This document shows positions 5,821 to 43,068 of a stretch of 47,095 nucleotides of DNA, in pieces. The stretch is taken from positions 1-47,095 of the forward strand of contig CALRDH010000005.1 of the NCBI GenBank assembly GCA_943354835.1, read 5' to 3'. Position numbers and translations under genes: made by a program. The notes beneath the pieces were generated by a model. It searched no databases and was not told where the DNA came from. It saw nothing but the letters and a program-made list of their open reading frames with translations. This DNA is from a candidate division WWE3 bacterium. GTDB lineage: Bacteria > Patescibacteriota > WWE3 > 2-01-FULL-39-13. How positions within the stretch are numbered: position 1 is the first letter of the stretch; every line of letters starts with the position of its first letter.

Positions 5821-6362
5821 TATGATTGTTGTTTAAATTTTTCCTCGTAAGCTTTCATCGACTCTGCTATTAGTTTATATGCTTCTTCCTTTCCACGAAA
5901 TCCAGTTATTTTAACTGTTCCTGGACCTGTTTGTGCGTATTTATATGTTTCCATAAATGTTTGAAGATCTTTAAGCTCGTGTTTTGGCATATCATCTATG
6001 TCGTTAATATGATCCCATCTTGGGTCTTTTTTGTTAACGCAGATAATTTTATCGTCGGATTCTCCGTTATCTTCCATTCCCATGACACCAACTACTCGTC
6101 CATGAGCAACGGCACCTGGAACAATATTTCCTGTTGTGTACAAAACTGCATCTAGTGGATCGCCATCGTGAATGTTCCATGTTCCAGGAATATCTGCATA
6201 AACAACTGGATAATGGACTGGTCCATAAAGTACACGATCAACTTCTAAATAACCGATTTCATTATTGTATTCATATTTAACAAAATCACCGCGTGAAATC
6301 TCTACTATAACTTTCAAAACTTCAGGTGCTTTATCTTGTTTTATTGCGTGAAAAAGATTCAT
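5820..6362 (-). CDS. ppa: Soluble family I inorganic pyrophosphatase (start moved to MNLFH at 6362)
   Basis: KYEY, DRVL..P.HYP, DGDPLD, D.G.SDDKII, FMETYK motifs. The 6389 start would overlap the upstream gene. Confidence 0.92.
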
Positions 6363-6367
6363 ATAAT

Positions 6368-7564
6368 TTATGTTCTTGTTAGAAACCAAAAAGATATTGC
6401 ACTTAAAAGTCCGGCCATCGAAGAAATTGGCTCCTGGTCTTTTGTTTTCTTTTTGGAATCAACAAACCATCCTAAAAATAAATAGAAACTCAATACTAAA
6501 AGAAGTGAAGACATTGCTTCAACTCTTCCGAATCTTATTATAATGGCAAGTGTAGCAATTGTAAAAAGACTAATAAACAGTGGTATGGATTTTTCAATTT
6601 CGTTTTCTACTAACTTTGATTTTATCTTTTCGACGTATTTTTTTGAATGATCTATAAGTATAAAAATTATAAATATCCAAGATACTTGATAACCACTGAC
6701 TAAGTTAAACCTTGTTATTATGCCTTTATTTTCATTAATTTCTGATGAGGCGAAAATGAACAAAAGTGGAACCAATTTTGAGACTGTATTTTTAAAAGAG
6801 CTTAAATCTTTTCCTGTTGATAAACCAATCATTGCTATATATATAAATGCACTTAAAAATGCAAGACAAATCCCTAAAATCCCTGATATTTGATATGGAA
6901 CTAAAACTAGTAAAACAAGTTCATTAATATCAATAATTATTGATCTGTTTTTAACAAATAAATTTACAATACCTGCGATAATTCCACAAAAAAGTGGAAT
7001 TAATATTGTTGCAACTCCGATTTCTTTAAAAAACATATAGCAGAATGCAAAATAGGATAGAGCGATTAATGCCGTTGAAATTGAAATTACTAACTTGTTT
7101 ATACTTACGACTTTTAGTAAGAAATAAATCGCGAGTGGAACTAAAATCACGAGCAAGATTGTGAATGAGGTTTCTTGTAAAAGTAATTTATTATATCCTC
7201 TAAATTTTTCTATACTGCTTTGGAAAACTAAGCTAGATAATAATATTGTGTTTACAAGATTTAATTCTAGTGTTTTTGCATTGTTTGATATTTCTTGTGA
7301 TCTGAAACTAAAGTAGAGGAAGGCTAAATTTGCACCTATTAAGTATGCTGGTATAAAAATTAAATCTGACTTAAAGAAGTAAATTAAAATCCCGGATAAA
7401 ATTACATAATGCGTAATTTGTGAATTTTTATGTAACAAAATGTATGTGCAAATTATTCCGAATGCGAATGCAATCAGTACATAAATATTATTAAATTGAA
7501 ATAGATAATAAAAAATTACAGGTATGAGTATTGCCGAAATTAACTCCCATTTAAAGATTTTCAT
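6368..7564 (-). CDS. Polytopic membrane protein of unknown function (roughly 11-13 hydrophobic segments)
   Basis: 398-aa ORF tightly packed between gyrB and ppa, almost entirely hydrophobic helices; no recognised motif. Confidence 0.75.
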   Translation of the reverse strand: MKIFKWELISAILIPVIFYYLFQFNNIYVLIAFAFGIICTYILLHKNSQITHYVILSGILIYFFKSDLIFIPAYLIGANLAFLYFSFRSQEISNNAKTLELNLVNTILLSSLVFQSSIEKFRGYNKLLLQETSFTILLVILVPLAIYFLLKVVSINKLVISISTALIALSYFAFCYMFFKEIGVATILIPLFCGIIAGIVNLFVKNRSIIIDINELVLLVLVPYQISGILGICLAFLSAFIYIAMIGLSTGKDLSSFKNTVSKLVPLLFIFASSEINENKGIITRFNLVSGYQVSWIFIIFILIDHSKKYVEKIKSKLVENEIEKSIPLFISLFTIATLAIIIRFGRVEAMSSLLLVLSFYLFLGWFVDSKKKTKDQEPISSMAGLLSAISFWFLTRT

Positions 7565-7568
7565 ATTA

Positions 7569-9569
<2,001 letters not shown>

Positions 9570-10788: not shown

Positions 10789-11867
10789 TTTGCTGATTGA
10801 CCTTTTGTATACCTTATTATTTCATCGGTATTTGATGTTTTTGTTAATGCATCTTCTAAATTAATTTTTCCGCTAGAAACAAGCTCTGCCAATGACTTCT
10901 CCATTGTTATCATGCCAAGATCTCCGCTTGTATTAATCAAGTTATGTAGGAAATGAGATTTGCCTTCTCGTATTGTGTTTCTAACAGCACTATTGGCAAT
11001 CATTATTTCGACTGCAGGATATCTTTTGCTTGAATCAATACCACGAATTAATGTTTGATTTATTATTCCTTCAATTACAGATGCGAGTTGCATTCTGACT
11101 TGTGATTGTTGCTGTTCCGGAAACATTCCAACAACTCGATCAACTGTTTGTACAGATGAATACGAATGCAAACAAGTTATAACAAGGTGCCCCATTTCGG
11201 CCGCAGTTATTGCAAGTAGCATTGTTTCTGTGTCTTGAATTTCTCCAATAAAAATAACATCGGCGCTTTCTCTTAAAGCTGCTTTAAGTGCTTTTGACCA
11301 GCTTAATGTGTCTACGTATAATTCGCGTTGATGAATCAAGGATTTATCAGATTGAAAAATATATTCAATAGGATCTTCGATTGTTACAACATGAACACTT
11401 CGATTTTGATTTATCCAATTTATCATTGCAGCTGCAGTTGAAGACTTTCCCATACCAGAAGCTCCGGATAAAATAATTAGACCTTGAGGAAGTTTACAAA
11501 ATTCATACAAAATATGTGGCATATTAAGTTCATCAAGTGTAGGAATGTGTTCTGGGATTAACTTTATTGCCACTGCAATTCGGCCTTTTTCAAAGTATGC
11601 ATTAACTCTGAATCTGGATTTTTCGTCCATTTCATAAAGTGAATTTAATTCCTTTTCTTCGTATAAGATCGAAATTTGTTCTTCATTAAAAAGTTGGCTT
11701 ACTAGATATGTTGTTTCTTCTTTATCAAGGACACTAAACCCTTGAAGTGGAGAAAGTGCTCCTGATATTTGTGCAGTCGGCGGAAGACCTGCACTTATGT
11801 GAAGGTCTTCCGCCTTCACTTGTATCATCTTAGTTAAAAGTTCATCAATTAAATATTCTTTAGACAT
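10785..11867 (-). CDS. pilT: PilT-family retraction ATPase with divergent motifs
   Basis: RFRVN, GASGMGKSS, TIEDPIE, HQRE, ALRESADVIFIGE, GHLV..CLH, AVRNTIREGK. Confidence 0.85.
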   Translation of the reverse strand: MSKEYLIDELLTKMIQVKAEDLHISAGLPPTAQISGALSPLQGFSVLDKEETTYLVSQLFNEEQISILYEEKELNSLYEMDEKSRFRVNAYFEKGRIAVAIKLIPEHIPTLDELNMPHILYEFCKLPQGLIILSGASGMGKSSTAAAMINWINQNRSVHVVTIEDPIEYIFQSDKSLIHQRELYVDTLSWSKALKAALRESADVIFIGEIQDTETMLLAITAAEMGHLVITCLHSYSSVQTVDRVVGMFPEQQQSQVRMQLASVIEGIINQTLIRGIDSSKRYPAVEIMIANSAVRNTIREGKSHFLHNLINTSGDLGMITMEKSLAELVSSGKINLEDALTKTSNTDEIIRYTKGQSAK

Positions 11868-11881
11868 AATTTTCCCTTTCT

Positions 11882-13693
11882 TTATTCATCTGCAACTGTA
11901 TGTACTTCTCCGATTGTCGTTATTCCCCAGAGTGATTTAAGGTATCCATCTTGAACAAGTGTGATCATACCTTTATCTATGGCACTTTTTTCAATTTCAT
12001 CTGTTGCTACATTTTGTTCGGCTAGTTTTTGAATTTGTTCATCTACTTCTAAGACTTCGTAGATTCCGATTCTTCCTTTAAATCCTGTTTGATTACACTT
12101 ATCGCATCCCTTTCCTTTGTATAGTTTAATATTATTCAAATCAATTTCTTTTGTCGGCGATTCTTGATTTTTTGGAGTCGTAATTGGTTCGTCGTCTGTA
12201 TCCGTATCCTCAAATGGATTATGACTTAAACCAACTTTAATGAGTTTGTCACCAAGAACGCGTTTAATGTCAGCTTTTATTTCTGGGTCTGGATCGTATG
12301 CTTCCTTGCAATTTTCACATACTTTTCGAACTAACCTTTGTGCTAAAACGGCATTGATTGTTGATGCTAAAAAGAAACTTTCAATTCCCATGTCTGTAAG
12401 CCTTGGAATTGCACCGGCTGCAGAATTTGTGTGCAAAGTTGCTAAAACAAGATGGCCTGTAAGTGCTGCTTGAATTGCAAGTCTTGCAGTTTCGCCGTCT
12501 CTAATTTCTCCAACCATTATTATGTTTGGGTCTTGTCTTAAAATAGACCTTAATCCGTTTGCAAATGTTAGGTCAGCTTTTATGTTTATTTGAACTTGGT
12601 TGACTCCAGGAATATTTATTTCAACTGGATCTTCAAGCGTGATTATATTTACTTTTACTGAATTTACTTTATATAGAGCTGTTGCTAGAGTAACCGTTTT
12701 ACCCGAACCCGTTGGACCTGTTACTAAAATTATCCCAGTTGTTTGTCTTAATGCTTTATTAAATATGCTGTGTGCATTCCCCCATATTCCTAGCCCTTTT
12801 AATGTGAATACAGTTTTTTGATCTTTTAAAAGACGGATAACAACCTTTTCTCCAAATACTGTGGGAAGTGTTGATACACGAAGGTCTGTGCGAGATTCTC
12901 CAAATATAACCCTGAATTTTCCATCGAGCGGCTTACGTCTTTCATCAATTGGCATGTTGGCTAGAATTTTAATTCTTGCGACAACCGAGTTGTGAATTTC
13001 TTTTGGAAGCGGGAATTTTTCTTGTAAAACCCCGTCGATTCTATATCTTATACGAGTTCCTGTTTCGAAAGGTTCAATGTGAATATCAGAGGCCCCCGAT
13101 TTAACGGCGTATTCTAAGATAACGCTAACAATTTGAGCAACAGGTGAAACTTTTATAATTTGTTTTGCCTGATCAATGTTTTGCAAGCTTTCAGTCATCT
13201 TTTTAGTTGAAGTTTCTGTTGCTTGTTCTATTGCTTTATTGACATCTTTGCCAAGGCTTTTGCTATATTCTCTGTCGATTGCTCCAAGGATTGAATTTTT
13301 TGTACTAGCATATGGCTTTACTTTAAGTTTTAAACTTCTTTCTAAAAATTGAATGATTAAAAGATCGCCTGGATCTGCCATTGCGATATCAATTGTGTTT
13401 TCGTTTCTCTCAATTGGAATGATGGTGTATTTTCGAGCCATTTCTTCTGGAATTGATTGAACTGTTTCTGGAAGTATCGAAAGACCAAGTGGATCAACAA
13501 ATGGAATCCCTTGAAGTTTTGACTCTTCCATTGCAAATTGAGTTTCGTCTATGTATTGATTTTCGAGAATTATTTCTTTGGTAGATTTATCAGAACGAAG
13601 CTTTTCGTTTTTGATTTCTTCGTATTGGTGCTCGCTAATTAGTTGGTCAGCAAGCAATAAGTCTTCAATCGTTTGGGCAGTATTTGTCGACAT
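11882..13693 (-). CDS. pilB: Type IV pilus assembly ATPase PilB (likely start MSTN at 13693)
   Basis: ASDIHIEP, RYRIDGVL, GPTGSGKT, LEDPVE, LRQDPNIIMVGEIRD, GHLVLATLHTN, two CxxC pairs. Confidence 0.95.
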   Translation of the reverse strand: MSTNTAQTIEDLLLADQLISEHQYEEIKNEKLRSDKSTKEIILENQYIDETQFAMEESKLQGIPFVDPLGLSILPETVQSIPEEMARKYTIIPIERNENTIDIAMADPGDLLIIQFLERSLKLKVKPYASTKNSILGAIDREYSKSLGKDVNKAIEQATETSTKKMTESLQNIDQAKQIIKVSPVAQIVSVILEYAVKSGASDIHIEPFETGTRIRYRIDGVLQEKFPLPKEIHNSVVARIKILANMPIDERRKPLDGKFRVIFGESRTDLRVSTLPTVFGEKVVIRLLKDQKTVFTLKGLGIWGNAHSIFNKALRQTTGIILVTGPTGSGKTVTLATALYKVNSVKVNIITLEDPVEINIPGVNQVQINIKADLTFANGLRSILRQDPNIIMVGEIRDGETARLAIQAALTGHLVLATLHTNSAAGAIPRLTDMGIESFFLASTINAVLAQRLVRKVCENCKEAYDPDPEIKADIKRVLGDKLIKVGLSHNPFEDTDTDDEPITTPKNQESPTKEIDLNNIKLYKGKGCDKCNQTGFKGRIGIYEVLEVDEQIQKLAEQNVATDEIEKSAIDKGMITLVQDGYLKSLWGITTIGEVHTVADE

Positions 13694-13724
13694 AATCTCT
13701 AATTTCAGTATATCATAGAGATTA
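13693..13724. promoter_or_regulatory. 9-bp inverted repeat TAATCTCTA-N14-TAGAGATTA enclosing a minus-strand TG-A-TATACT extended -10 in the divergent pilB/holB gap
   Basis: Arms at 13693-13701 and 13716-13724; the spacer reverse-complements to TGATATACTGAAAT. Confidence 0.55.
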
Positions 13725-13727
13725 CTT

Positions 13728-14441
13728 ATGCAAACGGTAATTATTACAAGTGAGAACAAGGAATCGTCTGATTTTTATGTTTCAAAAAATTATGAAATAT
13801 CTGAAGCTGGTGGTAATTCAATGATAATTGAATCTGTGGGTGGAAAAAAGATATCTATTGCGCAGGCTCGCGAACTTATTAAGTTCGCGAGCCTGCGCCC
13901 AGTTAACTCCAAGCAAAAAATTGCATTAATTAGAGATGCGCAAATAATGACGATTGAGGCTCAAAATTCTCTACTCAAATTAATTGAGGAACCTCCTACC
14001 TATTTACAAATTATTTTGATCGTAAATAATCCAAAAAATTTGCTCGATACGATTTTGTCTAGGTGCATAATAATAAGGGTTGAAAAAATTAAAGTAGACT
14101 CCCCTTCTTTGGATTCCGATGAATTTTTTAAAGAATTTTCAGAAATTCTATGTATGTCTATTGGTGAACGTTTTGATTGGCTTTCGAGTAATCAGACAAA
14201 ATTTAAAGATAGAAATTTTGCAGTAGATTTTTTGTCTAGGTGGGAATTATTTTTAAGACATTTTTTGATTGCTTCTGTTAATGTTCCAAATAAACTTCCA
14301 ACAAAAATTTGGCAGGAAAATTTGGTTTATCTAAAAGATGTTATTGAGAAAATTCGTGTAAATAACGCAAATATATCAATGGGTATAGAAAGTTTTTTAA
14401 TAAACTTACCAGTCGTTGCGGGCGCTATGCATACGAAGTGA
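13728..14441 (+). CDS. holB: Short DNA polymerase III delta-prime-like protein
   Basis: ISIAQAREL, KIALIRDAQIMTIEAQNSLLKLIEEPP, LLDTILSRC. No Walker A or Zn finger visible. Confidence 0.8.
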   Translation: MQTVIITSENKESSDFYVSKNYEISEAGGNSMIIESVGGKKISIAQARELIKFASLRPVNSKQKIALIRDAQIMTIEAQNSLLKLIEEPPTYLQIILIVNNPKNLLDTILSRCIIIRVEKIKVDSPSLDSDEFFKEFSEILCMSIGERFDWLSSNQTKFKDRNFAVDFLSRWELFLRHFLIASVNVPNKLPTKIWQENLVYLKDVIEKIRVNNANISMGIESFLINLPVVAGAMHTK

Positions 14442-14447
14442 TATACT
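14439..14447 (+). promoter_or_regulatory. Extended -10 TG-A-TATACT, 6 nt upstream of the pilin ATG (leaderless geometry)
   Basis: TGATATACTGCGAAT-ATG; overlaps the holB TGA stop. Confidence 0.5.
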
Positions 14448-14453
14448 GCGAAT

Positions 14454-14936
14454 ATGGCATATAGAGGCAAGCTTTTTCGAGGACTTACGCTTATAGAAAT
14501 CAGTATTGTTATTGGCATTTTAGCAATTTTATCTGGAGTTATTATTGTTACGTTAAAGCCAAAAGAGCAAACTGGAAAAGCTTCTGACGGAACAAAAAAA
14601 ACAGATAGTGCAGCCCTCTTATCAGCAGTTAATAGATATTTTGTTTCGTATAATGGTGTTTATCCTTGGGCGTCGGTTGCAAACTGTAGCGCTCCTACGA
14701 GTAATGGAACTTCAACAGTTTCTGCTTGTTGGTTGAACCGTTTGGTCGCAGTTGGGGAAATCGATTCAAGCTTTGCAAATGGAAGTAATATTTCTTCACT
14801 GATAGTCACTTTGGATTCATCAAGTGTTGTTCATATTTGTTTTGCTCCAACATCTCAAGCATTTTTGTCCAAGGCATATCAAAATTCAAGGGGAATTAGC
14901 GCTTCCCCTGGTACACATATTTGCATTCCGGAGTGA
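14454..14936 (+). CDS. Type IV prepilin
   Basis: RG|LTLIEISIVIGILAILSGVII class III signal; C-terminal Cys pairs. Confidence 0.88.
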   Translation: MAYRGKLFRGLTLIEISIVIGILAILSGVIIVTLKPKEQTGKASDGTKKTDSAALLSAVNRYFVSYNGVYPWASVANCSAPTSNGTSTVSACWLNRLVAVGEIDSSFANGSNISSLIVTLDSSSVVHICFAPTSQAFLSKAYQNSRGISASPGTHICIPE

Positions 14937-15017
14937 TCGTCTTTCACCTGCGCTAAGTTTAGAAATTTTTAATCAAAAGTTTAACATTTTCCGCTTGATA
15001 TCAACGAAATTCTGTGG

Positions 15018-15641
15018 TTGAATGTGTTGGTGAAAAGCAACGAAGAGACTCTTTTAACAAAAGAATATTTAACCTCATATCTAGATGAAAAGTTGTCAGC
15101 TTTGATTGGTTATATGGATGCTCGGTTTGAAAAGATCGAAAATCGACTAGGTCATATTGAGTCTCGCTTAGATAAAATTGAAGCCCGTCTAGATGGCCAC
15201 GACATTCGTTTCGATCAGATTGACGAACAGCTAATTAATATTAATGTCAGATTGGATGGCCATGATGTACGTTTCATTCAGATGGATAATAGATTCGATT
15301 CCATGGACAAGCGATTAAACAGTGTTGAAGATGAACTTAAGGTTATAAATAAACATTTGGTTGCAATTGATGAACGTTTAGATAGCCATGAGGAAAGATT
15401 CGACCGACTAGAAAAGCATATCGATTTTAAATTTGATTTTTTCAAAGAAGATATTGTACGAAGTCTTGAGCCAATGTTTGCTGATATGAGAATCGACCTT
15501 TTAGGATATAAAGATTCTATGGTATCTAGAACAATGGATATAGAAATTGAGCAAGTCGCGTCAACGAGTATTGCAAAAAGGAATCAAGACTTGCTTTGTG
15601 ACCACGAAGTACGAATTAAAAAATTGGAAGTTACACGGTAA
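15018..15641 (+). CDS. Heptad-repeat coiled-coil protein, no TM or signal peptide (start uncertain: TTG 15018 or GTG 15030)
   Basis: Long 7-periodic RLDxxExRL/RFD pattern; internal 21-aa near-repeat RLDGHDIRF.../RLDGHDVRF... Confidence 0.7.
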   Translation: MNVLVKSNEETLLTKEYLTSYLDEKLSALIGYMDARFEKIENRLGHIESRLDKIEARLDGHDIRFDQIDEQLININVRLDGHDVRFIQMDNRFDSMDKRLNSVEDELKVINKHLVAIDERLDSHEERFDRLEKHIDFKFDFFKEDIVRSLEPMFADMRIDLLGYKDSMVSRTMDIEIEQVASTSIAKRNQDLLCDHEVRIKKLEVTR

Positions 15642-16430
15642 ATGTTTTTAATTATTTTTTTTACTGCATTTTTATTTTTTCTTTTTATCGGATCTTTTTT
15701 AAACGTTGTTATTGAACGCGTCTACAGGGGAGAACAATTTGTGAAAGGAAGGTCATATTGTGTTTCGTGCAAGCATGAATTGTCAGCTTTTGATTTAGTT
15801 CCAGTTTTTTCATTTTTATTTTTAAAAGGAAAATGTAGATATTGTAAAAAGAGTATTCCCCGAATACATGTTTGTATAGAGCTTTTTACGGCAATTTGTG
15901 CAGGATTTATTTTCGCAACTTACCCTTTTATACAAGCTTTGTTTTTTAGTTTGGTTTTGGTTGTTTTGATTTTGATATTTTTTACGGATTTAATGTATTA
16001 CGTTATTCCGGATATCTACCTATATCTTCTTTTCGGACTGTATATAATTGGGGCTGCCCTTTTATATGTCTACCCAAATTCGTTTTATTTTCTTTCCAGT
16101 TTCTACTTCCCTATCTGGGGTCATGTCAGGGCAGCCCTTATCTCTTCCGCCTTTTTTGGAATACTTTATTTGGGTTCAAAGGGTAAAGCTATGGGCGAAG
16201 GCGATATTTATTTATCTGGAATATTGGCGCTTTTTTTAGGTCCGACCTTATCTTTGGTTATGCTTTTCATTTCCTTCTTGACAGGAGCAATAGTTGGAGT
16301 AATACTCGTTTCAATGGGCAGGAAGCGGATAACACAGGTTATACCGTTTGGCCCTTTTTTAATTGTTGGGTTTACGATTAGTTATTTAGTTGGTTTCAAT
16401 TTAATTAATTTGTATCTGGGATTGTTATAA
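15642..16430 (+). CDS. pilD: Prepilin peptidase (A24A)
   Basis: GSFLNVVIER, CVSC and CRYC Zn motifs, FTD and MGEGD catalytic Asp residues, PFGPFL. Confidence 0.95.
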   Translation: MFLIIFFTAFLFFLFIGSFLNVVIERVYRGEQFVKGRSYCVSCKHELSAFDLVPVFSFLFLKGKCRYCKKSIPRIHVCIELFTAICAGFIFATYPFIQALFFSLVLVVLILIFFTDLMYYVIPDIYLYLLFGLYIIGAALLYVYPNSFYFLSSFYFPIWGHVRAALISSAFFGILYLGSKGKAMGEGDIYLSGILALFLGPTLSLVMLFISFLTGAIVGVILVSMGRKRITQVIPFGPFLIVGFTISYLVGFNLINLYLGLL

Positions 16431-16431
16431 T
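16423..16431 (+). promoter_or_regulatory. Consensus extended -10 TG-T-TATAAT upstream of the probable major pilin
   Basis: Perfect TGnTATAAT 32 nt before the ATG at 16464; overlaps the pilD stop. Confidence 0.55.
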
Positions 16432-16463
16432 ATTAGCTTTCTCCGATAAAAAAAGTACGAAGA

Positions 16464-16901
16464 ATGAAAAAATTACCTGTCCGCTTCGGAAGAAAAGGGT
16501 TTACCCTTATCGAGTTACTTATAGTTATCGTTATCATAGGAATCCTAGCCGGTGTAGTCTTGGTGGTACTTAACCCAGCCAAACAACAGAGAAAGTCTGC
16601 AGAATCTGTATTGTCTGCAAATACGAATAAACTTTGTCTAGCGTTAAACTCTTGTGCGGCGACAACTCCAACAGCTGCAAGTTGTGGTACATTGGCACTG
16701 TTAGGGGCTGCTGATCCTGCTGGAGTTCCAACCACCTCAACATATACGCCTGCTGTAGCCGGTAATGTAGTTACTATAACTGGTGCGTTGGCGGCAGCTG
16801 GAGGATCTAAGACCTCCGGTACAGCTTGTAATATTACATGCAGTTTTGATTTTGTTGCAGGTACTGCTGTTAAATTAACTCCTGACGCAGGTTGCTGGTA
16901 A
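16464..16901 (+). CDS. pilA: Probable major type IV pilin
   Basis: KG|FTLIELLIVIVIIGILAGVV; has its own promoter and a downstream terminator, so it is probably monocistronic. Confidence 0.8.
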   Translation: MKKLPVRFGRKGFTLIELLIVIVIIGILAGVVLVVLNPAKQQRKSAESVLSANTNKLCLALNSCAATTPTAASCGTLALLGAADPAGVPTTSTYTPAVAGNVVTITGALAAAGGSKTSGTACNITCSFDFVAGTAVKLTPDAGCW

Positions 16902-16942
16902 ATCGTTACTACCCTAGTTTGCTATCTGATTTAGCAGGTTCT

Positions 16943-16979
16943 GAAAAGGCCTCGGATTTCCGGGGCCTTTTCTGTTTTT
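16943..16979 (+). terminator. Intrinsic terminator after the major pilin
   Basis: 13-bp stem GAAAAGGCCTCGG-ATTT-CCGGGGCCTTTTC (one G:U pair) followed by TGTTTTT. Confidence 0.85.
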
Positions 16980-17023
16980 CCACATTTGTGGTAATGTATT
17001 TTTAGTACATATTTATTTTAAAA

Positions 17024-35142: not shown

Positions 35143-35963
35143 TTTAGCTTTTTCCCTGCTCCTATTTTATCAACTACTTCGCCAAACTGTAAAATTGCAA
35201 TGGACATTAAGAAATATGCGCAGATATAAACTAAATCGCTGATGCCTGCTGGTTCCCATGTATCTTGAAAGGTTCTATATAAGAATGTTGTGTCGGCAAT
35301 ATATTGAATTATAAGTGCGGCAATAATTGATAAAACCATTTTTTTCATCACACCACCAAGTGTTTCTTTTGATAGATAGTAGGCTAATATTGCCATTGAG
35401 ACATATATTGCTTGTCCGAATGGATATCCGAAGTCTAGAAAGATTAATATTGGTTGAGTCCAGTCGAATTCATATGAGCTCAAAAAGATTGTATACGATG
35501 TAAGTATCATCAAAACCGGAAGTGCAATCGATACAACTTTTTTTGATGTATATGCTTTTAGTGATATTTTAGATCCGGACGCGGTTGATATTAACCAAGC
35601 CCCAATTATATAAATTGGTATACTGCCAAAGTAAAATATTTCTCCGAATGATGGATAGGGGTTTTCGATATTATATACAAAAAAGTATATTGCATATGAA
35701 ATCTGTCCTAAAAAATTAAGAGTTAACCCTGCTGAAAATGCGAGAAGGGCTTTCCCTACTACACTTTTTATGCCGCCCCACTTTTTAGCAATTGAAAAAC
35801 CAGCAATTCCACCAATACAGGCAATTATTCCGTATGAGTCAGTAAACAGGTTGTTGTAAGTTTCGTTATCAACTTCAATTAGATTCAAATAGAACCAGGC
35901 AAATGTATAAAAGATAAATATTACTAACAATAATCGAAAAATCTGATTGTTCAGTAAGGACAT
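35139..35963 (-). CDS. Stand-alone 7-8 TM sensor-like membrane protein (likely start MSLL at 35963)
   Basis: PYPSFGEIFY, DFGYP and IADTTF...GISDLVY resemble membrane sensor domains normally fused to GGDEF/HK domains (recalled motif, not searched). Confidence 0.7.
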   Translation of the reverse strand: MSLLNNQIFRLLLVIFIFYTFAWFYLNLIEVDNETYNNLFTDSYGIIACIGGIAGFSIAKKWGGIKSVVGKALLAFSAGLTLNFLGQISYAIYFFVYNIENPYPSFGEIFYFGSIPIYIIGAWLISTASGSKISLKAYTSKKVVSIALPVLMILTSYTIFLSSYEFDWTQPILIFLDFGYPFGQAIYVSMAILAYYLSKETLGGVMKKMVLSIIAALIIQYIADTTFLYRTFQDTWEPAGISDLVYICAYFLMSIAILQFGEVVDKIGAGKKLK

Positions 35964-35970
35964 TAAAACC

Positions 35971-35998
35971 ATTATACATGCGAAATATGTTCAAGCAA
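35971..35998 (-). promoter_or_regulatory. Sigma70-like promoter TTGCTT-N16-TATAAT, 7 nt upstream of ATG 35963
   Basis: Read directly from the minus strand. Confidence 0.5.
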
Positions 35999-36007
35999 AA
36001 GACAATC

Positions 36008-36036
36008 TTTACTATAGGGCTACCTAATGATAAACT
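36008..36036 (+). promoter_or_regulatory. Candidate promoter TTTACT-N17-TAAACT (with extended TG), 7 nt upstream of the in-frame GTG at 36044
   Basis: Read directly from the sequence; divergent from the signalling operon promoter. Confidence 0.4.
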
Positions 36037-36043
36037 TATAAAA

Positions 36044-36958
36044 GTGAATTTTGATCTTCCTATTTTTAAGAAGATTTCGCTTTCCGATAAGGGACAGATA
36101 GACAGCATATTCCAGAACTTTTCTCCATACTGCGACTTTAATTTTTCTAATATATACAATTGGAGTTCGATTTCAAAACCAAGCGAGATAGCTTTTGTAA
36201 ACGAAAATCTCGTTGTCAAAATGAAGGATTTTGTTGAAGACCATGTTGTTGTCTCCTTTATTGGAAATAATAAGATTAGTGATACAGTTTCACATTTGTT
36301 ACATCATTTTGATGAACTTTCAATGATCCCGGAAGAATGTATAACTAAAGAATTATTGGAAAGAGAAGATTTGCTGATAGAGGAAGATCGCAATAATCAT
36401 GATTATATTTTGTCATTAAAGGATTTGATTGATTTGCCAGGAAATAGATTTAAATCGAAAAGAAGAAAAGTAAAAAAATTTTTAGAACAAAACCCAGATC
36501 ATACTGTTCAGGTAATAGATTTAAAAAATGATGATGTTTGGAAATTAATTGAAGATTTAACATTCCTTTGGAATCATTTAAAAAGAGGTAAGGCTTCTGA
36601 TATAAAAAATGAATTGAATGCTTTAAAAAGACAAATTAGTCTAGCCAATGTCTGTGAGATTATATTTGTTGGCGTATACATTGACGGAAAGTTAGTAGCT
36701 TTTACTACGAATGAAATTAAGCATGGAGGCTTTGCAATTGGCAGTTTTGGAAAGGCGGATTTTAGATATGATGGTATCTTTTCATATTCCGAGCACGTTA
36801 CAGCAAAACACCTTTATAGCCTTGGTTGTAAGTTCTTAAATTATGAACAAGATTTAGGACTTGAGGGTTTAAGAAAATCAAAACTTTCATGGAAGCCCGT
36901 AAAATTCTTAAAGAAATATAAAATTAGGAAAGTTGAAAAAGTTAAAGTAGTAAAGTAA
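36044..36958 (+). CDS. DUF2156 / MprF-C-terminal-like GNAT-fold protein (ORF open from 35978; GTG 36044 preferred)
   Basis: DFNFSNIYNW, DYIL..KDL.DLPGNRFKSKR, KAD..Y.G, LNYEQDLGLEGLRKSKLSWKP. Confidence 0.8.
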   Translation: MNFDLPIFKKISLSDKGQIDSIFQNFSPYCDFNFSNIYNWSSISKPSEIAFVNENLVVKMKDFVEDHVVVSFIGNNKISDTVSHLLHHFDELSMIPEECITKELLEREDLLIEEDRNNHDYILSLKDLIDLPGNRFKSKRRKVKKFLEQNPDHTVQVIDLKNDDVWKLIEDLTFLWNHLKRGKASDIKNELNALKRQISLANVCEIIFVGVYIDGKLVAFTTNEIKHGGFAIGSFGKADFRYDGIFSYSEHVTAKHLYSLGCKFLNYEQDLGLEGLRKSKLSWKPVKFLKKYKIRKVEKVKVVK

Positions 36959-36959
36959 A

Positions 36960-38051
36960 GTGAACCATATGCGCAAGACTCCCTATACAATATACGATCT
37001 TGATAAATTATCCAAGAATTATTTGAGATTAAATAAGATTTTTAAGGATAAGAATATATTTTATGCGGTTAAGGCAAATAAATTAGCACCTATTTTGGAA
37101 ACAATGGTTTCTCTTGGTAGCAACTTTGAAGTTAATACGCCACCTGAATTTGATGCGGTTTTGAATGCTGGCGGAACTATAGATAAAATTATTAACAGTG
37201 CCCCTGTTAAGACGATTGATTGCATAGAATATATGTATTCAAATGGCGTTCGGAAATTCGCTTATGATTCTTTTTGTGAAATAGACAAAATTTCAAAATA
37301 CGCTAAAGGTTCGAGCGTATTTCTTAGAGTTTATACAAGTAATGAAGGTAGCGGACAGGCCTTAAATACAAAATTTGGAGTGAATATAAAAGATGCGCCT
37401 AAATTAATCGATTACGCTATATCTGCTGGACTAGATCCTTTTGGTATAACTTTTAGTGTAGGTTCACAATGCGACAATATTGATAATTGGGAAGAAGCTA
37501 TAAAACTTGTCGCACCTCTTTTTAATGAATATCCAAGTTTGACAACTCTTGATATTGGAGGAGGTTTCCCTATTGAATATGTTAGAAGTTCACTTTCTAT
37601 AAATGATATCTCAAATGTCATCGAGAATTCATTAAAAAAGTATTTTAATAAGAAAATAAATTTATATCTTGAACCTGGAAGATACATAGTTGGAAATACT
37701 GGGACTACTGTATCAAGCGTGATTGGCACTAAAATTAATGAAGGTATAAATTGGTGTTTTGTTGATGTTTCAATATTTGGTGGGTTTTTAGAGTTATTTG
37801 AATTCGACGATTGGTTTTCTTACAAGATTACTACAAATAGTAAGTCAAATGAGAAGCTTTTATATAATATTGCGGGTCCAACCTGCGATGGTTGTGACAT
37901 ACTAGCGAAAAATATTCTTTTGCCAAAGATTGATATGAATAGCTTAATTTATTTTCATAGTACTGGAGCATATACGAATGAGTATGCTTCAAATTTCAAT
38001 GGGTTTCCTATGCCTACACATGTGTTTTTAAAAAAAGGAGTTGAACAGTGA
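36960..38051 (+). CDS. Group IV PLP-dependent ornithine/lysine-type decarboxylase
   Basis: FYAVKAN (PLP Lys), LDIGGGFP, EPGRY, GPTCDGCD, GAYT. Confidence 0.88.
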   Translation: MNHMRKTPYTIYDLDKLSKNYLRLNKIFKDKNIFYAVKANKLAPILETMVSLGSNFEVNTPPEFDAVLNAGGTIDKIINSAPVKTIDCIEYMYSNGVRKFAYDSFCEIDKISKYAKGSSVFLRVYTSNEGSGQALNTKFGVNIKDAPKLIDYAISAGLDPFGITFSVGSQCDNIDNWEEAIKLVAPLFNEYPSLTTLDIGGGFPIEYVRSSLSINDISNVIENSLKKYFNKKINLYLEPGRYIVGNTGTTVSSVIGTKINEGINWCFVDVSIFGGFLELFEFDDWFSYKITTNSKSNEKLLYNIAGPTCDGCDILAKNILLPKIDMNSLIYFHSTGAYTNEYASNFNGFPMPTHVFLKKGVEQ

Positions 38052-38965
38052 CCTGGTTAATTTATTCCATAATTCCAGCATTGTTGTGGGCAAGTGTTAA
38101 TTATATCGATAAGTATTTGATTGAGAAGTTTTGTAAGGGGCTTAATGTTGGTGCTCTTGTGCTATTTTCTTCATTTATTGGAATTCCAGTTTCTATTTTT
38201 ATTTTTGCTATTTACCCGGGTGTTTTTGATATCAACTTTTTTGAAATGTTTATTCTTACACTTTCTGGCAACTTTTTTTTGCTTGGAGTTGTTTTTTATC
38301 TTTATGCTTTAAGCAAAGATGAAACCTCGACTGTAGCGCCACAACTTTTAATGATTCCTGTTTTTAGTGGGCTATTTTCATATTTATTTCTTGGTGAAAA
38401 ATTATCTTTTATACAAATGATCGGGGTGCTTACAGTAATTTTAGGCTCGTTGCTTTTATCTATCGATATTAACGATTTAAGAAAACCGAAAATCAAATTT
38501 CCGATTTTTGTGTTAATGCTTTTTTCGTCTGCATTTATGGCGTTAAATGCTGTTATATTTAAATTTGGCGTTGTTTCTGATGTTTCATTTTGGACCGTCG
38601 CTTTTTGGGAGCATATTGGATTTGTTATCTTTGGATTCTTTTGCTTTATATTTGTAAAATCATACAAAATCGAATTCATACATTTAGTAAAAAAGAATGG
38701 ACTAGGCATTCTCTCTTTAAATTTTTTAAATGAAGTAATAACAATTATCGGCAATGTGATATTTCATTATGCAACTCTACTCGCCCCTATAGCGATTGTT
38801 GAAACTGTCACTGAAGGAATTCAACCGTTATTTGTGATCTTGTATGGAATATTATTAACAATTTTCTTTCCAAAAATTATTAATGAAAACATAGAAAGAA
38901 AATCATTACTTCAAAAAATACTAGCAATTGGAATAATGTATCTTGGATTGCAGTGTTTAGTGTAA
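38048..38965 (+). CDS. EamA/DMT-family transporter
   Basis: 10-TM two-repeat pattern, LFLGEKLS.IQ.IG, IINENI..K.L.QK. Confidence 0.88.
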   Translation: MTWLIYSIIPALLWASVNYIDKYLIEKFCKGLNVGALVLFSSFIGIPVSIFIFAIYPGVFDINFFEMFILTLSGNFFLLGVVFYLYALSKDETSTVAPQLLMIPVFSGLFSYLFLGEKLSFIQMIGVLTVILGSLLLSIDINDLRKPKIKFPIFVLMLFSSAFMALNAVIFKFGVVSDVSFWTVAFWEHIGFVIFGFFCFIFVKSYKIEFIHLVKKNGLGILSLNFLNEVITIIGNVIFHYATLLAPIAIVETVTEGIQPLFVILYGILLTIFFPKIINENIERKSLLQKILAIGIMYLGLQCLV

Positions 38966-38975
38966 GTTTGAAACC

Positions 38976-39800
38976 ATGCCTACGGCTTCTGGTACGTCTT
39001 TAAAAATTGATAGTTCAATATCAAAATCTAATGAAATCTATGGTAGTAGTTTTCCTATTAGGGTAGATTACGAATCTTACCTTCTTTCACATGGTTATAT
39101 AGATGATGCAAAGGACGCTTGGAGTGATCCAAAACTTGTAACTATGATTCAACAACATTGGCATCATACAGGTCAAAATGGTTGTGTATTTGCACAATCT
39201 ATAGCTTATAAACGAGAAGAAATAGGCTGGGAATCAGATGTTATCTATAATTTAAACCCAGAAACTTTAAATTACATAGACAATAGGATTAGTGTTGCAA
39301 TTTCTTCATTGGATAACGAAGTTTTAAGTTTGTTATTCCCCAATATCATAACCCCAGAACAATTAGTAGTTTTGATTGTTTGGTTATCCAACGTGCCTTG
39401 TATGAATATAGAATTCGATATACCGATTGACGACTATACGATTATTGGATTGAGAATCCCACTTGGCAACGATGGCGAGGTACAGTCTTGGCTCGTCGGA
39501 TTTGCTCCAATGGATTATTTACCAAACACAAGGCAATCTCCCATCACAGAAATCGCTATTAGAACAAAGCTTAAACATGATAAGCTATTTCATAGACTTA
39601 ATCAAAATAAAAATGAAGCTCACTTGGCTGATGTGCAATTAGATTACAGTGAAGATGTTATGGAAAAATTATGGCAAGCGACTAAGGCAAGAACAAGTTT
39701 TCTTCTTGGTGGTGAAGTGGAAAGAAGGAATATAAAATCAGCTAGCGCTAAGGTCACAATAGCTGTACCGACCGATTTATGGATATCAAAAAGAAATTAG
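38976..39800 (+). CDS. Hypothetical soluble protein (possible remote YqcI/YcgG-like)
   Basis: GQNGCVFAQ and GFAP..YLP.TRQSP..EIAIR motifs; the similarity is only recalled. Confidence 0.6.
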   Translation: MPTASGTSLKIDSSISKSNEIYGSSFPIRVDYESYLLSHGYIDDAKDAWSDPKLVTMIQQHWHHTGQNGCVFAQSIAYKREEIGWESDVIYNLNPETLNYIDNRISVAISSLDNEVLSLLFPNIITPEQLVVLIVWLSNVPCMNIEFDIPIDDYTIIGLRIPLGNDGEVQSWLVGFAPMDYLPNTRQSPITEIAIRTKLKHDKLFHRLNQNKNEAHLADVQLDYSEDVMEKLWQATKARTSFLLGGEVERRNIKSASAKVTIAVPTDLWISKRN

Positions 39801-39820
39801 TTATTTAATTATTTAAAAAC

Positions 39821-40450
39821 ATGTTAGAAGTAGAAAAACGAGTGTTAATTAAAAAATCTGATTTACCTGCACTAATTTTAAGCTTACATCAAGAAGGTAA
39901 ACAAATTATTGAGTTTAAACGATTCACAATGGTAAAAATTGATAATAGCGACTTTATCCCTAAAAAGGATAGCCCCATAGATATTAAGATACGAACATCA
40001 AAAACAGAGTCGTTATTCACGGTAAAGGTAGGAAATTGGCATGCTGACACTGCTAGAAAAGAAAACGAAATCCATTTTGATAAAAATGAGATTGGCGAAC
40101 TTATCTCAATGTTAGTTTCCTTAGGATACAAATATTTTGTTGCTATGTATGTAAATAGAATGAAATTTGAACTAAACGATATGACAATCACTATAGATAA
40201 TTACCATCATTTAGAAGATTGTTTAGTAGAAGTTGAAATATTGATAGAAGCACTTGGGAATAAGGATTATGCAGAGATTAAAATACAAGAGTATTTAGAA
40301 AAATATAATTTAAAACCACTAGGCTCTCAAGACACTATAAACTTTATTACGAAGATAAACATGGTAAAGCAAACGCAAATAGACTTTGAGAAAGTCAGCA
40401 TCCAAGAATGGGAAAGTAAGTGGGAAAAATTTATTCGTTGCGAGGTTTAA
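39821..40450 (+). CDS. CYTH / triphosphate tunnel metalloenzyme
   Basis: N-terminal EVEKR, IRT, LFTVK, RKENE, ITID, EVE. Confidence 0.85.
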   Translation: MLEVEKRVLIKKSDLPALILSLHQEGKQIIEFKRFTMVKIDNSDFIPKKDSPIDIKIRTSKTESLFTVKVGNWHADTARKENEIHFDKNEIGELISMLVSLGYKYFVAMYVNRMKFELNDMTITIDNYHHLEDCLVEVEILIEALGNKDYAEIKIQEYLEKYNLKPLGSQDTINFITKINMVKQTQIDFEKVSIQEWESKWEKFIRCEV

Positions 40451-40463
40451 TTCAGTCTTCATA

Positions 40464-41027
40464 ATGCTTACAACTCAACTTGGCGGAAAATTCTCAACTG
40501 AAGACTCTGGCTTGTTCACTTTAAAGAAAGTGCTTTTGAACGCAGGTATTAATGTCGCTTATCCAACAGGGAATTCTATCGTTACTGTCCAAAATGGTGT
40601 CCCGCTAACTTTTGATCCAAAAACTGAACACAGATCATTTTATGAGATTGAAATCGACTACCTTAAATCAATTAAGGACTCTGACATACATATCATACAT
40701 AACAAGCACATTGATAATCTTGGATACATAGGTGAAAGTGCAAGCGTAGAGTTAGCCTATGCCTTGGTTCATAACAAGCCTGTTTGCTTGATGTATCCTC
40801 CAACTTTCTCTGATAAAGTGCGTGATTCTATAAAGCAAATAATTAATAAGAATGCGGATTTATTTTTAACAACAAATCTGATTGTCATTAATAATGATGA
40901 GCTACACAACACTTTGTCCGATTATGCATCAAAAGCTATAAAATATAGATTAAATGTTTTAGAGGAAATTGAAATTTATAATATAATCAAAAAGACTTTA
41001 AATTCTTATATAATTAGGGATGTTTAG
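40464..41027 (+). CDS. Nucleoside 2-deoxyribosyltransferase-like protein (start moved to ATG 40464)
   Basis: YLKSIKDSDIHII...GYIGESASVELAYALVHNKPV carries the NDT-type E-L-x-YA...KPV motif. Confidence 0.65.
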   Translation: MLTTQLGGKFSTEDSGLFTLKKVLLNAGINVAYPTGNSIVTVQNGVPLTFDPKTEHRSFYEIEIDYLKSIKDSDIHIIHNKHIDNLGYIGESASVELAYALVHNKPVCLMYPPTFSDKVRDSIKQIINKNADLFLTTNLIVINNDELHNTLSDYASKAIKYRLNVLEEIEIYNIIKKTLNSYIIRDV

Positions 41028-41868
41028 CGATAAGATCTCAAATTCATCTAGTGAAGAAGTGAATGGCAGTTTAATCGAATTTGAATTAATAGGTCAAGGA
41101 CTGGAACGGTATACGATCAACCTGGAGCTATTGTATCCAAACACACAAGACCGCATACGTTTTGAACAACGTTGGCCTGGGTTTTACAATTCTGATTCTG
41201 TCAATGCCGATATAATGAGGAAAAACGGGGACGACTTAGTTTATATTTCTGAATCAATAGTGCCTATTGTTGAAAGCAATAAACCACCATTACTTTTTGT
41301 ATTTGGTAACCCTGCTCCTCATTCAGTAAAAGCTGGCATCCCATTTGCGTACGAAGGAAATGGAAAAGAGCATAGAATTTGGAAAGTATTAAAAAGTACA
41401 TCGTTAATAGATTTCGGTCTAGATCACAGCGAACTAAATCCGAACGATATGAATTTACACAGAAAGAATCGACTGCATAATCTTGAATATAACTCAAAGT
41501 ATAAGATAGGTTTTATACAATATTTTTCTATGCCTTCGACACCAAGCAAAATTCCTTGGACAGGGGTGAGCGGACTATCTAGGTTGTTTGGCAATGATGC
41601 CATGAGACTAATTGAAGCCACAGAGCTAAATCGTATTAAAGCAATTGTTGATTCATTTATGGCAAATGGTGGGGTTATAGTTACCTTTCAAAAAGATGCA
41701 TATAATGGTTTAAAATCAGAACAAATGTTTAATTATTCCATAGATTTAGCGAAGGCAAATATGCTAAGTGGAGAGTCTATGTTTGGGAAAGATTATAAGT
41801 TAATTTGTGCGCCTCCGACAAGATTGCTATACAGTAAAGCAATGTTTAACACATTAAGTAATCTATAA
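41020..41868 (+). CDS. Hypothetical protein with a Mug/UDG-superfamily-like motif
   Basis: LLFVFGNPAPHSVKAGIPFAYE...RIWKVL resembles the Mug motif IFCGINPG.SS..GFPFAHP.NRFWKV. Confidence 0.55.
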   Translation: MFSDKISNSSSEEVNGSLIEFELIGQGLERYTINLELLYPNTQDRIRFEQRWPGFYNSDSVNADIMRKNGDDLVYISESIVPIVESNKPPLLFVFGNPAPHSVKAGIPFAYEGNGKEHRIWKVLKSTSLIDFGLDHSELNPNDMNLHRKNRLHNLEYNSKYKIGFIQYFSMPSTPSKIPWTGVSGLSRLFGNDAMRLIEATELNRIKAIVDSFMANGGVIVTFQKDAYNGLKSEQMFNYSIDLAKANMLSGESMFGKDYKLICAPPTRLLYSKAMFNTLSNL

Positions 41869-41931
41869 GTTCTTCACCTCCTAGCATAATTTTGCCAAAT
41901 CCAATATAATCGTTTTTAGTTAAACTTGCCC

Positions 41932-43068
41932 ATGAATGTTAAAAATACCGTACTCGGTCTGGATATTGGTACGAGCCATATAAAGGCTGTTTCAATATAC
42001 CGAGAAAAAAATAAAAATACACTTTTAAGGTACGCTATCGGCCCATCACTTGGTCTTGCAACAAAGATTGCTTCCGAATCAGAGATCGATAATATAGCAG
42101 CTTCAGAAATTCTTAAAAACTTTTTAACTGATAATGGTTTTCAAGATACACAGGCAGTTGCGGTAATTCCGGAACAAAGAGTTTTTAGCAAAGTGATTTC
42201 AATGCCAAATGTTGGAAAGCGTGATTTTAAACAAGCAATCGAATGGGAAGCTGAACAGCATTTGCCTCAAGCGTTAGCCGAAGTTTACCTTAAATATACG
42301 ATACAAAAAGAACATTCAAATTCAAATAAAGTTGAAAAAAAGAATTCTGTTTTGGTTGATGTAAAAAATCTTTTGTCCATGAAGACAGCAACTCCTCAAG
42401 TTAAATCAGAATCAACTGTAGATGTTCTGCTAGTTTCTGTGCAAAGAGGATATGTAGATCGATATCTTTCTGTAATAAATAGATCTGGACTTGCTCCACT
42501 AGGACTTGAACCAACATCAATTTCAGCAATTAGAAGTGTGCTAAACGATGAAACCAATGTTCCAACAATAATAATTAATCTTGGTTATACAAATACAGAT
42601 TTTTATTTTTGTGTTGATAATAATTTGCGATTTGTCAGGCCGATTTCACTTGGAGTTTCAAGTGCAATAAGATTAATATCAGAAGCTCTTGATGTATCTC
42701 CAGTTCAAGCAAACGAATACTTATATACATATGGACTTCAAACAAACGCATTAAATGGAAAAATAAGAGAAATCATAATGCCTGTTATGAGAATGTTAAT
42801 GGAAGAATTTGAAAAATCAAAAGAATATATTGAAAGTAGAGAAGCACTTTTTGGTGATGAGGAAGATAGAAGAGTTAGAAGAATAATGCTCATGGGTGGT
42901 GGTGTATTGATACCCGACATAATGGTATATTTAATTCAGAATATATCAGTTGAAGTAGAAATTGCAGATGCTTGGAAATCTCTTGATATAAGTCTTGTCG
43001 GAGATTCGAAAACAATGGATTTATTCAGACCGTTATTTGTTGCTGCTGTGGGAGCAGGATTAAAATAA
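41932..43068 (+). CDS. pilM: Type IV pilus alignment protein PilM (ORF-track start TTG 41926)
   Basis: LGLDIGTSHIKAV, AIEWEAEQHLP, IINLG, actin-like fold pattern, AAVGAGLK. Confidence 0.92.
   Translation: MNVKNTVLGLDIGTSHIKAVSIYREKNKNTLLRYAIGPSLGLATKIASESEIDNIAASEILKNFLTDNGFQDTQAVAVIPEQRVFSKVISMPNVGKRDFKQAIEWEAEQHLPQALAEVYLKYTIQKEHSNSNKVEKKNSVLVDVKNLLSMKTATPQVKSESTVDVLLVSVQRGYVDRYLSVINRSGLAPLGLEPTSISAIRSVLNDETNVPTIIINLGYTNTDFYFCVDNNLRFVRPISLGVSSAIRLISEALDVSPVQANEYLYTYGLQTNALNGKIREIIMPVMRMLMEEFEKSKEYIESREALFGDEEDRRVRRIMLMGGGVLIPDIMVYLIQNISVEVEIADAWKSLDISLVGDSKTMDLFRPLFVAAVGAGLK

Follow-up and report, generated by a model that had tools for sequence, protein, structure and literature searches.

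A rare, horizontally mobile four-gene cassette combines predicted CYTH, NDT-like and UDG-like enzymes with an uncharacterised hub protein

Single-gene antiviral DNA glycosylases, termed Brig and Dag, were described between 2024 and 2026. Brig1, Brig2 and Brig3-BapA are antiviral glycosylases of the UDG superfamily, and in the Brig3-BapA operon a previously uncharacterised protein, with a predicted ASCH/PUA-like fold (BapA), prepares the modified base for the glycosylase (PMC11078745; bioRxiv 10.1101/2025.10.29.685425; bioRxiv 10.64898/2026.02.25.707755). In human cells, DNPH1 (Rcl) sanitises 5-hydroxymethyl-deoxyuridine monophosphate in the nucleotide pool, with SMUG1 discussed for hydroxymethyluracil in DNA (PMC10603095). 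The MOSC proteins YcbX/YiiM and Ham1/RdgB/ITPA detoxify N-hydroxylated and deaminated purines (PMC3831636, PMC5818509, PMC3288088), the MOSC precedent including 6-N-hydroxylaminopurine (PMC3831636, PMC5818509). Here we consider a 47,095-nucleotide stretch of a candidate division WWE3 bacterium (contig CALRDH010000005.1, positions 1 to 47,095; hereafter the window), in which a first-pass annotation had grouped a CYTH, an NDT-like and a UDG-like gene at 39821-41868 as three enzymes that could act on one non-canonical nucleotide. We find that these genes are three quarters of a four-gene cassette, consisting of ORF4, CYTH, NDT-like and UDG-like genes, with ORF4 as the hub. No description of either the cassette or ORF4 was found in the literature searched.

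The four genes of the cassette in the window are:
38976..39800, + strand: ORF4, uncharacterised hub protein, 274 aa, lying outside the block first annotated
39821..40450, + strand: CYTH / triphosphate tunnel metalloenzyme of the CyaB-like subgroup, 209 aa (PF01928, TIGR00318, tunnel motifs)
40464..41027, + strand: NDT/DNPH1-like N-glycosidase candidate, 187 aa (hhalign against PF05014 proteins, aligned Glu)
41020..41868, + strand: UDG-superfamily DNA glycosylase candidate, 282 aa, nearest to family 2 (MUG/TDG) (AlphaFold2 and Foldseek)

The three same-strand genes and the folds first given to them were upheld, by hidden Markov model matches and motifs for the CYTH protein, by hhalign for the NDT-like protein and by AlphaFold2 with Foldseek for the UDG-like protein. 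The boundary drawn around them was wrong, as ORF4 had been filed separately and is the most constant member of the set.

The arrangement resembles Brig3-BapA in placing a predicted glycosylase and a second protein in one presumed operon, action of ORF4 on the same base being a proposal. It differs from the Brig systems by the addition of the nucleotide-level CYTH and NDT-like proteins, which those systems do not have. With DNPH1/SMUG1 it would share the pairing of an NDT-fold N-glycosidase for an odd monophosphate with a UDG-superfamily glycosylase for the same base in DNA; the human genes, however, are unlinked and have housekeeping roles, whereas the cassette is one presumed operon that also encodes a predicted triphosphatase and the hub ORF4.

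The cassette families co-occur in at least seven independent contigs with GC contents of 33-65%, in two gene orders, and one further protein fuses ORF4 to CYTH. Such recurrence across contigs of differing G+C, in two orders, indicates that the adjacency is not due to chance. The order ORF4-CYTH-NDT-UDG is seen in the window (GC ~0.33), in a Dojkabacteria chromosome (L002, 0.40), in L008 (0.645) and in the metagenome contig L084 (0.60). The same order is found in a Patescibacteria metagenome-assembled genome (MAG; L006, GC 0.34) with a guanylate kinase gene inserted between ORF4 and CYTH, and a second metagenome contig (L086, GC 0.49) reads ORF4-CYTH-NDT before being cut by the contig end. The alternative order UDG-ORF4-CYTH-NDT occurs in L087/L088 (GC 0.51). 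An extended version is found in L114, where an S-adenosylmethionine (SAM) methyltransferase and a canonical PF05014 NDT are followed by ORF4, a MOSC protein with an MGMT-like domain, CYTH, NDT-like and UDG-like genes; the L114 ORF4 is the closest large-context relative, with 58% identity. Partial forms comprise ORF4, Ham1, UDG-like, NDT-like and guanylate kinase (L009), an alkyltransferase-like MOSC fusion (MOSC-ATL) followed by ORF4, NDT-like and UDG-like (L026), and UDG-like plus ORF4 (L047, L085). Conserved linkage, the lack of which the first-pass annotation had listed among the grounds for refuting its proposal, is thus present, and its central idea survives on that account.

ORF4 adjoins other cassette genes in all cassette loci. 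A true fusion is provided by a 454-aa JGI metagenome protein (P0216) with an ORF4 part (residues 3-245) and a CYTH part (255-445), which its source annotates merely as 'adenylate cyclase class IV'. Homologues of ORF4 are present in many phyla and are all unannotated; the family was found in bacteria of the candidate phyla radiation (CPR), Bacillota, Bacteroidota and Acidobacteriota, and in records labelled Streptomyces, Actinosynnema and Staphylococcus. At the sequence level, ORF4 matched nothing in Pfam, NCBIfam or the PDB. The phage family phrog_34888, which has no assigned function, matches ORF4 with E 2.8e-6 and may be a distant phage-borne relative family, the tblastn search of 50,697 phage records being empty. 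The AlphaFold2 model of ORF4 is of high confidence (pLDDT 95.6), and a Foldseek search with it gave no confident PDB match, the best being nitric oxide synthase (NOS) haem domains (E 0.1-0.4, TM 0.2-0.3); nothing in BFVD matched the model. The residues W62, H63, G66, G69, C70, R186, E192, K200, H216 and D219 are invariant, which suggests that ORF4 is an enzyme.

Two known families were considered for ORF4 and rejected. The YqcI/YcgG thiolate-haem N-hydroxylases (AglA, DcsA; PMC12866846) are of similar size, likewise have a conserved Cys close to the N-terminal helices and conserved Arg/Lys residues further on, and show a broadly similar order of secondary structure as judged by eye. However, the corresponding family model (PF08892) matches 0 of 47 ORF4 homologues, and hhalign gives a probability <1%, with a template that is thin and made of Actinomycetota PF08892 proteins; ORF4 itself is not filed in the YqcI/YcgG family. 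An AglA-like entry is absent among the top 50 Foldseek PDB matches listed. A BapA-like (ASCH) identity was dismissed since no ASCH/PUA entries are among the Foldseek matches, and ORF4 differs in this respect from BapA.

Outside the full cassette, ORF4 keeps a consistent type of company. It is encoded directly after a small Pfam-UDG (PF03167) gene on conjugative elements (L053-55, L078, L080, L081), after a second type of Pfam-UDG (PF03167, 238 aa) in L093, before MOSC and MGMT-like fusions (L083, L092, L096), and, in Cytobacillus (L056), with a HAD hydrolase gene on one side and a NUDIX gene on the other. The tally of neighbours includes the two further UDG (PF03167) types (5 loci), the MOSC-MGMT-like fusion (5 loci) and guanylate kinase (3 loci), along with Ham1, NUDIX with HAD, and SAM methyltransferase. 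Hence, ORF4 almost always adjoins a base-flipping protein acting on DNA, and nucleotide-pool hydrolases are frequent neighbours too.

The MGMT-like domains next to ORF4 have P-L-Y-R, P-L-H-R or P-V-H-R in place of P-C-H-R. Given the missing cysteine, these domains can be considered alkyltransferase-like base binders rather than transferases. Fusions that combine a MOSC domain, with its C-E-x-C kept, and a cysteine-less MGMT-type domain were located at L026 5312-6133, L083 4158-5012, L096 6725-7471 and L114 9837-10544. Such a fusion would be a DNA-directed MOSC protein, as the fused MGMT-like DNA-binding domain implies that the MOSC partner would work on DNA; no description of it was found in the literature searched. 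The recurrence of MOSC and Ham1 beside ORF4 suggests the same kind of base-analogue problem as that solved by the known MOSC and Ham1 proteins. The cases differ in that the MOSC partner of ORF4 carries the cysteine-less MGMT-like domain and is absent from the window, and a link to ORF4-type proteins is not made in PMC3831636, PMC5818509 or PMC3288088.

The UDG-like protein has no match to PF03167 or to other Pfam families, and no PDB sequence match by phmmer or by hmmsearch with a 21-sequence profile. Its AlphaFold2 model (pLDDT 90.7, pTM 0.88) was compared with the PDB using Foldseek, and the matches ranked 1-15 all belong to the UDG superfamily (probability 0.87-1.0). The top match is human TDG with 5-hydroxymethyluracil (5hmU; E 2.8e-5, probability 1.0), followed in the list by family 4 UDGs, UdgX and Deinococcus MUG. 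The TM-scores, which are target-normalised, lie at 0.4-0.6 (up to 0.62), and identity to the MUG/TDG matches is 14-16%. Across 21 homologues, G96-N97-P98-A99, Q-K-x-A and P266-T267-R268 are invariant, including the Asn of G-N-P-A-P. By position, we take G-N-P-A-P to be the site of the family 2 G-I-N-P-G motif with its catalytic Asn, and P266-T267-R268 presumably marks the location of the MUG/TDG intercalation loop. An N-terminal extension of ~85 residues constitutes a family-specific extra domain with invariant residues of its own (F48, F55, S58, D59).

Judged from this model, the UDG-like protein has a UDG fold that is nearest to MUG/TDG, and is a glycosylase candidate. It resembles E. coli MUG and human TDG in its top structural matches and in the G-N-P-A-P and P-T-R motifs, and departs from them in its low identity, the lack of a PF03167 match and the additional N-terminal domain. 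The Brig proteins provide a further parallel, being likewise divergent UDG folds missed by the Pfam UDG model and horizontally spread; they are often near mobile elements, and defence or mobile-element genes accompany about half of the contexts examined here. In contrast, no Brig entry is among the significant Foldseek matches of the UDG-like protein, where TDG, MUG, family 4 and UdgX come first.

The longest reading frame of the NDT-like gene opens at a TTG (40386), which would place its first 65 nt within the CYTH gene. The start is most likely the ATG at 40464, which yields 187 aa, since all homologues begin with M-x-T-Q-[LI]-G-G-K at that position. The protein has no Pfam (E<=1), NCBIfam or PDB sequence match, and just 1 of 76 relatives matches PF05014 (E 0.017). 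Matches to myoglobin (E ~0.01-0.1) were dismissed as chance local similarity. The family is small, with 184 representatives recovered by an exhaustive HMMER search of 1.84 billion proteins. A 76-sequence family alignment was compared by hhalign with genuine PF05014 proteins taken from 150 further genomes in this phylum, giving probabilities of 72-81% and E-values of 1.2e-5 to 3.5e-5 over 100-127 columns; two control alignments in the same test gave 0.3-0.6%. The comparison places Q-L-G-G-K of the NDT-like protein on the S-I-R-G-G phosphate loop of the PF05014 proteins. It likewise bears out the earlier claim that the nucleophilic Glu of NDT enzymes is retained in SVELAYA: Glu96 of S-V-E-L-A-Y-A aligns with the catalytic Glu of G-V-G-Y-E-L-A-Y-A, and is kept in all cassette-linked copies as well as in 57 of the 76 representatives of the wider family. 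This supports NDT/DNPH1-like kinship at the superfamily level, as opposed to PF05014 membership.

The CYTH protein matches PF01928 just under the cut-off (E 2.4e-4, 21.4 bits against 23.2), and its best NCBIfam match is TIGR00318 (cyaB; E 1.1e-6, 28.5 bits against a cut-off of 57.95). The L006 orthologue has an unmarked (E<=1e-5) precomputed PF01928 match that is stronger than that of the window protein. The motifs E-x-E-K-R (N-terminal), D-x-K, G-x-W-H, R-x-E-x-E and E-x-E are all invariant across seven cassette CYTH orthologues. In the window protein the signature reads E3-V-E5-K6-R7, with the K/R order swapped relative to ExExK. The charged-residue pattern of the orthologues is as expected for a triphosphate tunnel, and the prediction of a CYTH protein at 39821-40450 is sound. 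CYTH is the most dispensable member of the cassette, being missing from L009, L026 and L047. The Patescibacteria MAG L006 contains three CYTH paralogues within ~11 kb (5758-6366, 8813-9442 and 15753-16343), one of them in the cassette, and an EVE-domain gene lies nearby at 16350-16781.

Among the 134 genomes of the class, the present one alone encodes ORF4, and the same holds for the UDG-like protein. The cassette is missing from a sister genome of the same genus, in which pilM is 82% identical and is preceded by a 352-aa gene of Fic type (976-2034 of L105, contig G126:C29; motif by eye). The presence of the Fic-type gene there identifies the site upstream of pilM as a variable spot or accessory-gene hot spot. 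The present genome also encodes, at other sites, a standard UDG (113 bits) as well as a standard PF05014 protein. In a maximum-likelihood tree of 41 UDG-like proteins, all eight linked copies fall in one 12-row subclade (support 88/91, under the star threshold of the tool), which mixes Patescibacteria, Acidobacteriota, Bacteroidota, Chloroflexota, one archaeon and high-GC contigs. A 19-row clade dominated by Thermodesulfobacteriota, and the Chloroflexota clades, contain solo UDG-like genes without conserved neighbours. The cassette is rare, accessory and horizontally mobile between bacterial phyla.

Neighbours of the cassette or of ORF4 include type I restriction genes, Mrr, MmeI, HigB and integrases, a set that varies between two strains of one organism; ArdC, an integrase and a relaxase; HerA, a relaxase, TraG, DNA methylases and a STAND-like ATPase; IS21; and RhuM. 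Linkage to defence islands had been suggested as a check on the original proposal. Defence or mobile-element neighbours accompany about half of the contexts (L001-L003, L047, L053/L080, L057, L087, L026), and there is no such context in L006, L009 or the window itself. L001 and L002/L003 have an identical UDG-like copy and the same upstream genes, and differ in the defence sets that follow the cassette (~10900-17000), with a type I restriction methylase, S subunit and DUF4357 on one side of the comparison and Mrr, MmeI, HigB and Peptidase_M78 on the other. The defence island at this cassette border is turning over fast. On a Chryseobacterium conjugative element (L047, 3987-7137), UDG-like and ORF4 genes are preceded by a HerA-type ATPase with a 409-aa partner, a guanylate kinase and a small RelA/SpoT-type synthetase, a block that may be a larger nucleotide-centred cargo.

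A phage origin was rejected as typical for the cassette. Neither ORF4 nor the UDG-like protein matched any of 50,697 phage records by tblastn, and 2.9 million viral contigs yielded one match for each. The sole viral-contig copy of the UDG-like gene (L111, IMG/VR, 5986-6811) is split by a frameshift into pieces of 187 aa and ~90 aa, and adjoins a primase-like gene and a Dam-type methylase-like gene (assigned by eye).

The three genes first annotated are real, and the enzymes predicted from them probably active. Activities are proposed from the folds and conserved residues, and the working model for the cassette is inferred on the same basis. In this model, CYTH would act on a single non-canonical (deoxy)nucleotide and strip it at the triphosphate level, and the NDT/DNPH1-like enzyme, via its conserved Glu, would cut the base off the resulting monophosphate. 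Where that base occurs in DNA, the UDG-fold enzyme would flip it out and excise it by means of the P-T-R loop and the invariant Asn within G-N-P-A-P. ORF4, which constantly accompanies base-flipping proteins, would recognise or chemically convert the base and so set specificity. The cassette could serve as immunity against DNA carrying a modified base, as do the Brig and Dag glycosylases, or as protection against a mutagenic base analogue, as MOSC and Ham1 protect against N-hydroxylated purines; defence is slightly favoured over the anti-mutagen role. We judge such a multi-level purge of one non-canonical base by a mobile four-gene cassette, for defence or anti-mutagen protection, to be finely balanced between right and wrong. 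That one base would be handled as triphosphate, as monophosphate and in DNA had already been put forward from the three genes, and fits every recurrent partner found. With respect to the base itself, for which the first-pass annotation had suggested a hypermodified pyrimidine, the TDG complex with 5hmU as top structural match hints at a modified pyrimidine, and the guanylate kinase, Ham1 and MGMT-like domain partners weakly point to a purine.

Several observations weigh against this purge model. Of the 41 UDG-like proteins placed in the tree, approximately 30 are encoded on their own, lacking conserved neighbours, and because most members are of this kind the family is not intrinsically tied to the cassette. 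The copy in the window lies within a pilus locus, next to genes for small-molecule functions, and not in a defence island, and no PADLOC model matches any of the four cassette proteins. The functions of the four families are predictions from sequence and models: no chemistry can be assigned to ORF4, the NDT-like protein is placed by its 72-81% profile match rather than by a structure, and the Glu is missing from 25% of the wider NDT-like family. CYTH enzymes can be cyclases rather than hydrolases, which sequence alone cannot discriminate. Finally, the guanylate kinase partner runs in the opposite direction for a pure degradation pathway.

A different account of the same genes would be a producer with self-resistance, in which ORF4 is an enzyme that modifies bases or nucleotides, for example a thiolate-haem N-oxygenase resembling NOS or YqcI/YcgG. 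Its product would be a base analogue that is toxic or mutagenic, an N-hydroxylated purine being one possibility. CYTH would then supply the NMP, the NDT-like protein would free the base, as LOG, MilB and BlsM release free bases in biosynthesis, and the EamA transporter encoded upstream would export it here, with UDG-like, MOSC-ATL, Ham1 and NUDIX proteins shielding the DNA and pools of the producer. It is consistent with the NOS haem domains as sole, weak structural matches of ORF4, with the fusion of ORF4 and CYTH in one protein, and with an EamA exporter directly upstream in the window. Furthermore, ORF4 Cys70, Arg186 and Lys200 loosely recall the haem ligation of AglA by Cys44, Arg166, Lys196 and Arg200 (PMC12866846), MOSC and Ham1 are both known to handle N-hydroxylated purines (PMC3831636, PMC3288088), and a bacterium making 6-N-hydroxylaminopurine is on record (PMC6739109). 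However, the NOS matches are not significant at the E-values and TM-scores given above, and both YqcI/YcgG comparisons, the PF08892 search and the thin-template hhalign, were negative. The exporter is not conserved with the cassette, and the smallest forms, a small UDG plus ORF4 on conjugative elements, are without pathway enzymes. We regard this account as rather unlikely. Also unlikely is a make-or-break system for one modified purine, in which ORF4 represents a new enzyme family, possibly with a new thiolate-cofactor fold remotely comparable to NOS or YqcI, that alters a nucleobase together with base-flipping partners. The alteration might be N-oxygenation of a purine amidine or guanidine group, for example, and the partners would be the three UDG types and the cysteine-less MGMT-like domain fused to MOSC. 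Such a system could either give the cell a mutagenic base analogue as a weapon against phages and competitors, its own DNA being shielded, or strip a hypermodification from phage DNA and thereby make it open to cutting by the glycosylase.

Salvage is essential to CPR bacteria, and the genes could accordingly be viewed as CPR-style nucleotide salvage combined with base-excision repair, directed at no particular target, for instance general NTP/NMP turnover and removal of U or T:G mismatches. The solo UDG-like clades of Thermodesulfobacteriota and Chloroflexota do look vertically inherited, in the manner of repair genes. A housekeeping role of this kind is nevertheless quite unlikely, given that a single genome among the 134 in the class carries the cassette and the sister genome does not, that this genome already has a standard UDG and a standard NDT, and that the cassette is found in unrelated phyla, with a mixed phylogeny and beside mobile elements. 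NDT/TIR-like folds act as effectors in other systems, which would allow the NDT-like protein to be an effector in abortive infection that destroys an essential nucleotide. CYTH would then be a class IV-type cyclase producing the second messenger, and foreign DNA would be sensed by the UDG-like protein and ORF4. The top NCBIfam match of the CYTH protein is indeed cyaB, and ThsB_TIR weakly matches the canonical NDT in L114. This signalling scheme is very unlikely: no recognisable sensor or receptor domain (SAVED, CARF, STING) is encoded in the cassette, CYTH is the member most often missing, and the Ham1, NUDIX, HAD and MOSC-ATL partners are of hydrolytic or repair type and not signalling proteins.

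If true, the purge model extends the single-gene idea of Brig and Dag to a coordinated attack on a base at three levels from one mobile operon. ORF4 offers a handle on a widespread family of unassigned function that is almost always encoded next to base-flipping proteins. The identity of the substrate could uncover a modification of DNA or nucleotides, or a base-analogue metabolite, that is new, could yield glycosylase and N-glycosidase tools for the mapping of modified bases, and could explain why tiny CPR genomes bear such an accessory island.

Upstream of the cassette, the window contains three more genes of the same orientation:
35978..38965, + strand: LPG_synthase_C/DUF2156 transferase, Orn/DAP-type PLP (pyridoxal phosphate) decarboxylase and EamA transporter, 3 genes (Pfam matches)

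Together with the cassette these form a run of seven + strand genes spanning 35978-41868, with intergenic gaps of 1, -4, 10, 20, 13 and -8 nt, and pilM starts directly after it at 41926. A sequence scan of 35700-42100 found no + strand terminator-like sites, and promoter-like sites in it are no commoner than in shuffled sequence; for these reasons, transcription units are not resolvable from the sequence. The transferase, decarboxylase and EamA genes are packed tightly against the cassette (gaps of 1, -4 and 10 nt). As a conserved part of it they were rejected, being absent from every other cassette locus examined, and they resemble an independent cassette that has inserted at this variable site as well.

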